Made by a program: the position numbers
Assembly: GCF_057098645.1 (NCBI RefSeq)
Contig: NZ_JBXSPU010000002.1
Source: a plasmid
Length of the DNA: 64,000 nucleotides
Reading direction: 5' to 3' (one strand)
Shown: positions 36,001-39,000 of the stretch, piece after piece
Numbering within the stretch: position 1 is the first letter of the stretch
Layout: each line of letters opens with the position of its first letter

Positions 36001-39000
36001 TCAGAATGATAAGGTCTACCTGACACCGGGTTTGCTCGATGATGATGGTCTGCCTAATTTTAATGGAGTCACCAGGCAGGTGCCCGGAGAAGGTTATCAG
36101 CCAGTCAATGTCTATGAATTTGAAAGTGACTATTTTAACGCGGTATACGATGCAGACGGGAAGAAAGTGGCACTTTGTCACTGGTATGATGTGACGGATA
36201 ATTCATATTCTGCTGAAGAACTCATAGGCAATATGCCGCATAACGCATTTAAATTTCTTCAGTATAGACTGGATAATATCGAGCAGGCTGAGGCATTTAT
36301 CAAATACAGAAACCGGAATTATCAGCCCCGCGAAAATGCAGACTGGCCTGAGCCACCTGAAGGAGTTAAGCGTTACGTCATCAGAGCCCGAAGCTAGGTG
36401 AAAAATATTAAGGCAAAAGTTCAGTATGGAAATTGGTAAATCATACTGAACAATTAATATGACATTAGGCATGACTATAAGTAGGTGCCTTATTGGATGG
36501 TACATCGTATAAAAAGTAACTTTTCTAATCTCACCCAGCACTCCGGGAATGATGCTAACCTAAATCACGGGAGCAGTGCTGGATATTGGTCAATTTATAG
36601 TTCCTGTGGAATGTAAATGTAATTAAATGTTGCAATAAAGCGTGGTTGTGTTAAAAAGTAGGCTTCATTACCTAAGTTAAATTTTATAATGTATGCCAAA
36701 GAAGAATTTATACTCTGAAGAGATTGTGATTGCCAAAAAGCAACTCACTCAGCTTTCAACACTAAAAGATAAAGTCAGCCTGCTAACCCGTCAGTGGGAA
36801 GGTGATATTGGCGCCAATCTGCCTGGTTACACTGAGCTATTAGCTCATGTGGAAAGAATTGAAAGGCAGATTCATGAACAAATTGGCAGCTGGAAAAAAA
36901 CTCCTGCAATGTAAGATTCGCCTATCCATTCTGAAGCGGTGGTTTTGTTTAAGGGTAAAAAAATTCATTCCTTAATAGTTCTGTGACGCCGCTTTTAAAT
37001 CTTGGATGTTTGACTCTAAATGTCTATCATTTAATTAACAGTAATTATGATGTTGTCAGCCTTATTCCTGGCTGAATCTCAATATATTACCATACGACTT
37101 CATTTTGCTTATCTTCGGGTTCTCGAAGAATTCCGCCATGATTGTTCATAGCAGGAGGTTAGTATGGGTGTAGACATGAATTATGAGTTTCAGAAAAAAA
37201 GCCCTAAGGGATGGGACCGGGTTAACGATAATTTTTCAAACGACCGAAGCTATTTGCTTTATTCATGGTTGGGTCTGGATGCCCGTAACACCTGGGGTGT
37301 TGCAGCGATCACTCCTCTCAGGGGATTACCCGATGACATAGAACTTCAATGGGATGAGGATGGATGTGATGACTACTGGGGTGAGCATTCCCAAACGTGG
37401 TTACTATCCGACGAGATCCTTGCTTCAACCAGCCCGGTAGCCATTGAAGACGATGAACCGGGGTCGGTAGTTGCGGAGTTTTGTGCGGAGGTTCAGCGAC
37501 TTCATGGGCTGCATGGGACGGTAAGAATTGTTCTAGGCTTCACTGGTTAAACAAGGCTGGACTATCTAATGCCTCCAGACAACGTAATCCTGACGTGTTC
37601 ATCTACTGTAACCTGGTCGCTGGGGATATATCGCGGCCACCCTGACACGTCATTTGCATTTTTGATGATAAACGAAGGGTAGCCGAACTGCTCGGCCGCA
37701 ATATCGATATAAAAAATCATTTCACCGGCACTTACCTCACACCAGTAATGGCCGTGCCCGCCAGACTCATTGAAAATACCACCATCATCTGTTCCGTTCC
37801 CGCCTCGCACAGCTGCGGACATACCTCTGCGGTGCGCAAATTCACAAACCAGCAGACTGGCGAACATGCATGTTCCTGTGGTGTCGCTTGTCCCATTGTC
37901 ATTGAGGATATTTTTTAGTGATGAATAAGCATCAGTTGCGAGTGCCAGAACTGGAGTATCAACGGGAATAGAGGCCTGGTCAGTCATGAAAGAATGTCTC
38001 CGGTATGATGGAACGGCTAATTAAACAAGCAATGAGTTGATTCCGTTTTTGAGTACTTCACTTTCAGGCAACCAGTACCCGGAATCACACACCCATGATT
38101 CGCCCGGGAAAATGAAACCTTCGCGGACCAGGAATACTCTAAAATTTGGCGGCAGTACATTTTCTATTTTTAGCATGTATCCTTCCTGAATGGATAGATT
38201 TTTCAGCTCAGATAGAAGATTCGGTGAGACGATGAGAGTCATTAACTGAGTTGAGTTTAAAATCGCAACTATAGATGCATCATTATAGTTTTCCTGTCGA
38301 ATACCATGACAACGTAGAGTCAGGGATGCAGATCTTCGAGGCGAAACCATCGGTAACTAAATCGAGTAAATTTGGATTTAGCCGATTACCCGGTGCTGGC
38401 CTAAACGGCTCATAGTGATACCCCGGGTACTGTAAACTGCTGAAAATGCCGTGGGGCGCTTCTGAGGCTTTGTCAGGGCCACAGAACATGTTTATCCACA
38501 TCCGGAGGCGGTAGTACTTAGCTTATTCATTCATAAATGATATATCTCTGAAGAGAATATTACGTTACCTGCGCAATTATTATTCTTCCCTCTGAACATT
38601 GCTGGCATAACCAGTCATCGATGCACCGGCGAACTCACTGAAGTGTTGGCATATAGCCCGGTTACGTAACTCCCGTGTCACGGTGGCCACGGTTTTACGG
38701 CGCACTGGAGAAAGTGAAGTGGCACACTGAATTTGGCCACCTGAACAGAGGTGATATGCTCACCTCAGAACAACATGAAGAGAATGTACTCTGTACCTAA
38801 TGCAAGAAACGAGAGGGAGATCAGAAATCCTAACGTATTGATTTATCAGTTAGTGGGAGTGACATATGAACTTATTTACCACAGTAGGTGATTTAACATA
38901 ATCCTCGTTATATGTACCAAGTCTGTAACAGCAAAGTTGTAATGTCCGCCTTGGGCTAAGTTAAGATGTCCGGCGTGTATAATCAAGTAAGGATTACCAT

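Follow-up and report, generated by a model that had tools for sequence, protein, structure and literature searches.

A predicted transglutaminase-like protein of IncHI1-type plasmids and the deletion relic beside its gene

The 141-codon open reading frame at 37562..37987 of the plasmid DNA studied here is a real, conserved gene. We consider it probable that its product is a cytoplasmic, single-domain transglutaminase-like enzyme which acts solo, and that large MOBH conjugative plasmids carry the gene either in their backbone or as an accessory. The open frame just upstream is a deletion relic. The stretch analyzed, 64,000 nucleotides of the contig NZ_JBXSPU010000002.1, is called the window throughout. 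A sequence-only reading of the window had drawn attention to the 141-aa frame and to a 109-aa frame preceding it, and both are indeed present on the minus strand with these lengths. The protein represents a new family, so far without a Pfam model, within a well-known enzyme superfamily, and not a new kind of system.

The window consists of IncHI1-type plasmid backbone, and across 26.5 kb its sole mismatch to plasmid pSY3626_190k_tetX (NZ_CP059284) is the base that produces a Gly123Ser substitution in the 141-aa protein. The segment at 36400-38900 found a full-length match in about 35 Escherichia coli plasmid records. The region lies ~20 kb from a MobH relaxase/MobI/TraD cluster and comes after trhH, the genes for a TraG-N protein and DsbA-like products, and umuDC-like genes. 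Ascending the window, the features around the 141-aa gene are as follows:

33062-36397, plus strand: gene for a 1111-aa orphan protein
Between the 1111-aa orphan and the 128-aa gene, plus strand: 73-aa gene
37164..37550, plus strand: 128-aa gene, convergent, its end 11 nt away from the 141-aa stop codon
37562..37987, minus strand: 141-aa coding sequence for a predicted minimal, stand-alone transglutaminase-like/papain-fold protein, WP_001447552-like with the private substitution G123S
37621, minus strand: private single-nucleotide change, Gly123Ser (T in the window, C in pSY3626)
37703-37705, minus strand: codon of predicted triad residue Asp95
37748-37750, minus strand: codon of predicted triad residue His80
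37868-37870, minus strand: codon of predicted triad residue Cys40
37997..38001, minus strand: Shine-Dalgarno-like GGAGA, 9 nt before the ATG of the 141-aa gene, as read from the sequence
38021..38350, minus strand: 109-codon open frame, a deletion-generated chimera and not an intact gene, 33 nt from the 141-aa gene
38966..40405, plus strand: ISNCY-family transposase gene, bounding the rearranged region upstream of the 141-aa and 109-aa frames

The 141-aa frame is annotated by PGAP as WP_001447552.1, has a positive in-frame codon score and gave dN/dS ratios of 0.18-0.45 against five diverged orthologs, in all 14 of the pairs whose divergence sufficed for a ratio. The N-terminus of the protein is acidic, and inspection revealed neither a signal peptide nor a transmembrane segment; on these grounds, we take the protein to be cytoplasmic.

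An exhaustive profile search placed the protein in a family that numbers at least 218 clusters when grouped at 50% identity. Nearly all members are stand-alone proteins of 130-170 aa, and some distant ones carry a fused methyltransferase-like module, an RMF-like module or zinc ribbons. We aligned 106 divergent representatives, with a mean column identity of 27%, and found Cys40 and Asp95 each kept in 105 of them and His80 in all 106. The Cys...His...Asp arrangement picked out by the sequence-only reading is thus borne out by this alignment and is far beyond chance. G38, C40, G62, G63, G70, G79, H80, Y81, W82 and D95 are invariant or nearly so, as are D/E99, Q100, F101, G102, Y120 and G123, and the other conserved motifs of the family read RGG, GHYW-E and DITADQFG. 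The 141-aa protein has no above-threshold match in Pfam, NCBIfam, PHROGs or PADLOC, and a profile search of the family against PDB sequences returned chance-level matches only. In UniRef, the protein already bears the name 'Transglutaminase-like domain-containing protein'; no paper on the family turned up in literature searches that covered its accession, transglutaminase-like proteins of IncHI plasmids, and leading-region anti-defence.

When PLSDB was searched by tblastn, the 141-aa protein was found in 2088 of 72,556 plasmids, 1727 of which are predicted to be conjugative, and 174 records matched at ≥95% identity. The large MOBH plasmids that carry the gene include IncHI1 (≥95% identity), IncHI2 (55%), Klebsiella IncHI1B/FIB plasmids (40%) and Pseudomonas megaplasmids (39%).

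A structure model based on 10 close homologs scored poorly (pLDDT 67) and was replaced by an AlphaFold2 model that used the 106 divergent sequences as its alignment (pLDDT 93, pTM 0.87). In this model, Cys40 is the first residue of helix 40-53, His80 the first of strand 80-87 and Asp95 the last of strand 90-95, a predicted placing that corresponds to the canonical papain/transglutaminase arrangement. Fold search with the model gave a papain/transglutaminase-type result, with SseI as the best Foldseek match (E 9e-3, probability 1.0), while a search of BFVD gave only weak matches, to uncharacterized phage proteins and giant-virus arylamine N-acetyltransferases (NATs). The predicted structure has a nucleophile-type Cys at a helix N-terminus, His and Asp on consecutive strands in the order Cys-His-Asp, and overall fold similarity to solved papain-like and transglutaminase-like members of the Pfam clan Peptidase_CA. 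Because there is no above-threshold HMM match, membership rests on predicted fold and motif logic, and these support placing the 141-aa family in the transglutaminase-like branch of the papain superfamily. The protein had been suspected to be papain-like or NlpC/P60-like; the model and the SseI match favor the former, but the latter did not hold, as the protein matches neither an NlpC/P60 nor a CHAP HMM, carries no export signal and does not have cell-wall amidases among its nearest folds.

The closest structure is that of DUF2026 (PF09641; PDB 2HLY, Atu2299/APC5867), at 14% identity and with 205 residues compared to 141 here. In a 2023 classification of papain-like enzymes, 2HLY is identified as DUF2026 with Ser replacing the catalytic Cys, and DUF2026 is grouped with Tox-PLDMTX (SseI), PMT and glutaminases. 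The nucleophile therefore differs, being Ser in DUF2026 but Cys in 105/106 of the 141-aa family, and the DUF2026 HMM matched none of the 106 members at E ≤ 0.1. With a Ser and no assigned function, 2HLY does not help to define the chemistry of the family. The triad spacing of 40/15 residues in the 141-aa protein equals that of PMT (C1165/H1205/D1220, 40/15) and is close to that of SseI (C178/H216/D231, 38/15), and the Tox-PLDMTX HMM (PF15645) gave below-threshold matches in 4/106 members (best E 0.02) and none for the window protein. SseI and PMT C3, however, are domains of secreted or translocated virulence toxins that possess delivery domains and act on eukaryotic G-alpha, whereas the 141-aa protein is stand-alone, cytoplasmic and encoded on conjugative plasmids of many Proteobacteria. 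No delivery context was found for it, whether a fused translocation or targeting domain or a sign of being a secretion substrate, and its neighbors are plasmid backbone genes. Among the transglutaminase models, Transglut_core (PF01841) matched 2/106 members (best E 0.0018) and Transglut_core3 (PF13471) matched 3/106 (best E 0.032), in both cases without reaching the gathering score, and the window protein matched neither at E ≤ 1. The 141-aa protein also differs from LapG/BTLCP in lacking the periplasmic signal of LapG, from McjB-type lasso peptidases in having no lasso-peptide or RiPP context, and from eukaryotic transglutaminases in being far smaller.

The 109-aa frame, on the other hand, is the scar of a deletion in a neighboring gene. 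It has no Shine-Dalgarno sequence and a codon score near zero (0.04), and PGAP did not call it in the full pSY3626 record. Of 20 identical plasmid records listed, 19 show no annotation in the 2.5-kb query segment beyond three hypothetical proteins, a number consistent with the 73-, 128- and 141-aa genes. Open frames of this size are common in the window, which contains 93 of at least 109 aa, with several plainly spurious ones within 3 kb of the two frames. Its homologs cover residues 45-109 only and correspond to the C-termini of proteins of 155-157 aa; over these residues, the frame is 78-97% identical to P0218, P0219 and P0220 (155 aa) and to the chimeric P0217 (157 aa). Comparison with L021, one of three rare, IncHI1-like contigs (L021-L023), resolves the segment into the following parts:

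38021..38218, minus strand: remnant of the 155-aa gene, comprising its last 65 codons and stop (97% to P0218 by tblastn)
38218..38219, no strand: deletion junction, where 380 bp (L021 5891-6270) are missing from the window
38219..38515, minus strand: 3' part of a 150/153-aa gene and downstream spacer (98.3% to L021 5594-5890)
38283..38501, minus strand: 72-aa open frame, the C-terminal half of the 150/153-aa gene, inside 38219..38515

The two flanks of the junction match L021 separately: window 38218..37988 equals L021 6271..6501 at 98.7% by blastn, and window 38515..38219 aligns with L021 5594..5890 at 98.3%. With the deleted 380 bp went a candidate promoter (TTTTCA-17-TATTAT), a GGGAG ribosome-binding site and the 5' part of the 155-aa reading frame, from its start through codon 90. 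As for the 109-aa frame, its initial ~44 codons come from sequence that lies upstream of the deletion in L021, and its first ~24 codons equal the 3' end of the 153-aa gene of contig L009 in another frame; the 150/153-aa neighbor gene is itself truncated at window position 38515. A view of the 109-aa frame as purely spurious was abandoned, since its last 65 residues derive from a real protein of 155 aa. On the alignments, the frame is a chimera, probably with no function as such, and the same-strand partner proposed earlier is real only in its ancestral form, the 109-aa version amounting to the last 65 codons of that gene fused to unrelated sequence.

The intact 155-aa gene is seen in L021-L023, where it precedes the 141-aa gene on the same strand with 33 nt between the two; purifying selection acts on both halves of the 155-aa gene (dN/dS 0.18). 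The 155-aa family is small, with about five cluster representatives confined to few IncHI1-like plasmids, and the protein has no match in Pfam or PDB. Its motifs had raised the suspicion of a GNAT acetyltransferase, which the searches could not support: besides the missing database matches, hhalign aligned TGQGIFSALLSE of the protein with motif A (HRGRGIGSDLIAR) of a Pfam-verified GNAT at a probability of 1.7%. When the intact arrangement of both genes was searched against PLSDB by megablast, 222 plasmids matched, none of them with ≥80% coverage. The truncations in PLSDB comprise the window type, a pHCM1 type with a different N-terminal graft, and a type in which only 35 nt are kept upstream of the 141-aa gene. 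In the more diverged IncHI1-like lineages L002-5 and L009-11, the 155-aa gene is reduced to decayed, frame-shifted traces, yet selection on the 141-aa gene is still purifying.

These losses bear on whether the two genes could form a toxin/immunity or toxin-antitoxin module of which the window holds a degenerate copy with its upstream component destroyed. In favor of such a module, the ancestral genes point the same way with 33 nt between them, and purifying selection acts on each; the upstream gene was truncated in more than one way while the downstream gene was kept, as would be expected of a costly or toxic upstream gene and a downstream antidote; and papain-fold domains such as Tox-PLDMTX do occur as toxins. 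Nonetheless, we consider such a module very improbable. Lineages that lack the partner (L002, L007 and L009) still show purifying selection on the 141-aa gene, and the reverse loss is seen in contig L025, where the 155-aa gene is intact but the adjacent 141-aa homolog ends after residue 66. Since losses run in both directions, neither gene strictly needs the other; on this distribution, they have been lost independently and the 141-aa gene is solo. Neither a secretion, trafficking or polymorphic-toxin domain nor a PADLOC or TA-family HMM match was found, and the narrow range of the 155-aa family stands against a large 141-aa family with no conserved neighbor. Type II pairs such as the GNAT-toxin systems resemble the ancestral arrangement in being two small, co-oriented genes, here 33 nt apart on a plasmid in rare relatives. 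The likeness ends there: the partner is not detectably a GNAT, no antitoxin-type DNA-binding domain is present, each gene has been lost without the other, and the rest of the 141-aa family shows no such pairing. In the window itself, the upstream gene has lost its first 90 codons, ribosome-binding site and candidate promoter, so this copy shows no working toxin/immunity pair. The proposal of a toxin/immunity or effector/chaperone pair is therefore not supported, in view of the independent losses, of partner-free orthologs that stay under selection, and of the neighbor survey described below.

Two further readings concern the 141-aa protein itself, and we regard both as improbable to a similar degree. 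It could be an acyl-CoA-dependent acyltransferase like the NATs, with a xenobiotic, an antibiotic or another small molecule as its substrate in place of a protein, and might once have cooperated with the 155-aa protein. Its NAT matches score below DUF2026, SseI, TglA and LapG, however, and NATs are three-domain proteins of about 270-290 aa, of which the 141-aa protein corresponds to the core only, without the CoA-binding parts. The GNAT resemblance of the partner is not significant, and there are no metabolic genes around the 141-aa gene. Alternatively, the protein could be a catalytically silent remnant or scaffold whose fold persists for the sake of binding, in the manner of menin or band 4.2, or else the window gene could be decaying. 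Arguing against this, dN/dS is well below 1, and the triad, GHYW and DITADQFG are near-invariant despite a mean column identity of about 27%; such conservation in a diverged family points to an active-site signature and not to a scaffold.

To survey its neighbors, we fetched 64 further loci from representative genomes and clustered all open frames of 74 loci. No neighbor family was conserved across these loci, the maximum being 5 loci that represent one Ensifer/Sinorhizobium synteny block. The only other recurrent clusters in this set were antisense shadows of the 141-aa family gene. As an alternative partner, we considered the convergent 128-aa gene and rejected it: several lineages in which the 141-aa gene persists have only C-terminal remnants of it, and it is therefore a variable neighbor and not an obligate partner. 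On mobile elements, the neighbors of the family are mostly small hypothetical genes, and those that recur include orphan DNA methylases, HNH, PLD and SNase nucleases, Y-family polymerases and DUF6283. This neighborhood is only suggestive of the establishment and counter-defence islands of conjugative elements. Distant alphaproteobacterial members, on the other hand, sit among housekeeping-type genes, which counts against an anti-defence or establishment role, as that role rests on neighborhood only.

As for chemistry, substrate and biological role, we infer the following scheme from the predicted fold. Cys40, at the N-terminus of helix 40-53, would be deprotonated by His80, which Asp95 would orient. 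The thiolate would attack an amide carbonyl of a protein substrate, either a Gln side chain or a peptide or isopeptide bond, and form a thioester. Water would then break the thioester in a deamidation or cleavage, an amine in a transamidation. The likeliest reaction would be glutamine deamidation of the SseI/PMT kind, or else limited proteolysis, with a protein of the host or plasmid as target, and it would serve the interplay of plasmid and host, for example in establishment or counter-defence. The 109-codon frame would have no part in this, being what a 380-bp deletion left of the co-oriented ancestral 155-aa gene. A bolder reading, which we hold to be speculative and on the whole unlikely, is that the family forms an unrecognized class of plasmid-borne cytoplasmic glutamine deamidases or transglutaminase-like modifiers with which conjugative elements would modify a protein of the bacterial host, for example one involved in defence, the nucleoid or translation, and so aid establishment or persistence. 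If this deamidase or modifier reading is true, the family would mirror, with targets in bacteria, the SseI/PMT/Cif-type effectors that pathogens direct at eukaryotic cells, and if the enzyme modifies a host protein at all, it would count as a plasmid-host interaction factor of a new kind.

The determinants tet(X4), mcr and NDM and those of typhoid multidrug resistance are found on IncHI1 and IncHI2 plasmids and their megaplasmid relatives, and a large share of the backbone of all these plasmids is still annotated as hypothetical. With the present analysis, one conserved backbone gene of these clinically important plasmids gains a confident predicted fold, a candidate triad and the mutational targets C40, H80 and D95, while a false lead is removed in that the apparent two-gene module of the window is a deletion scar and not a toxin/immunity system.

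The window copy of the 141-aa gene may itself be impaired. A promoter scan of the minus strand from 37988 to 38578 found no promoter-like site; the promoter and terminator counts of these scans were about those of shuffled controls, so we use them only as weak hints. The Gly123 that is replaced by Ser in the window is kept in 101/106 family representatives. Given the deletion of the candidate operon promoter and a substitution at a near-invariant Gly, this copy may be poorly expressed or hypomorphic.

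Four neighbouring features of the window are considered together with the 141-aa transglutaminase-like gene:

33062-36397, plus strand, gene for a 1111-aa protein
37164-37550, plus strand, 128-aa gene running towards the 141-aa gene in convergent orientation
38219-38515, minus strand, C-terminal half of a truncated 150/153-aa gene (ORF 38283..38501)
40457-41503, plus strand, gene for a DUF3800 protein, adjoining the ISNCY element

The truncated gene breaks off at 38515, toward ISNCY, and its full-length form was found at two comparison loci (L021, 5374-5826; L009, 4465-4926), in the latter following a 546-aa gene. 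Pfam returned no match for either the 150/153-aa protein or the 546-aa protein of L009. Plasmids of the pHCM1 type carry an annotated chimeric protein of 157 aa (WP_000534813, our P0217; L024, and pHCM1 itself, L026, 2725-3198), which shares the junction …LIVSPN|LLSELK… with the window but bears a different, acidic N-terminal graft, unlike that of the window ORF. This combination of a common junction and distinct grafts shows that more than one rearrangement has affected the sequence directly upstream of the 141-aa gene.

On the other side, the stops of the 128-aa and 141-aa genes are separated by 11 nt. The 128-aa protein matches the phage family phrog_17909, of unknown function (E 1.6e-12), and its gene is whole in L007 and L021-L024, while L002-5 and L009-11 hold just C-terminal remnants. 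The 1111-aa gene is syntenic with the 141-aa gene, and its product shows ~92% conservation in other IncHI1-like loci and 46% in the IncHI2 counterpart (L012, 10994-14329). With no match in Pfam, NCBIfam or PADLOC scans, it is a big orphan protein of the plasmid backbone.

Within the 141-aa gene, position 37621 is the sole mismatch to the reference plasmid pSY3626_190k_tetX across 26.5 kb, and the base change produces Gly123Ser. Gly123 is present in 101 of the 106 family representatives and in P0002, a widespread variant found in at least 1000 contigs; the substitution could be hypomorphic or adaptive.

Among family members of gamma- and betaproteobacteria, orphan DNA methyltransferases recur a few genes away (L013, L014, L030, L038), and a methyltransferase-like N-terminal domain is fused to two metagenomic members (P0178/P0183), which together hint at a tie between the family and restriction evasion. 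MAGs of DPANN archaea and Patescibacteria (L062, L066, L081, L049, L079, L082) gave partial matches near the conserved DITADQFG motif, so that, judged from these matches, the range of the domain may extend far beyond Proteobacteria.

The DUF3800 protein has a weak PADLOC match to PDC-M04A (E 1.8e-4), and in pHCM1 a Shedu-family nuclease lies past the equivalent ISNCY copy; the ISNCY-flanking site may be a variable spot for defence genes.
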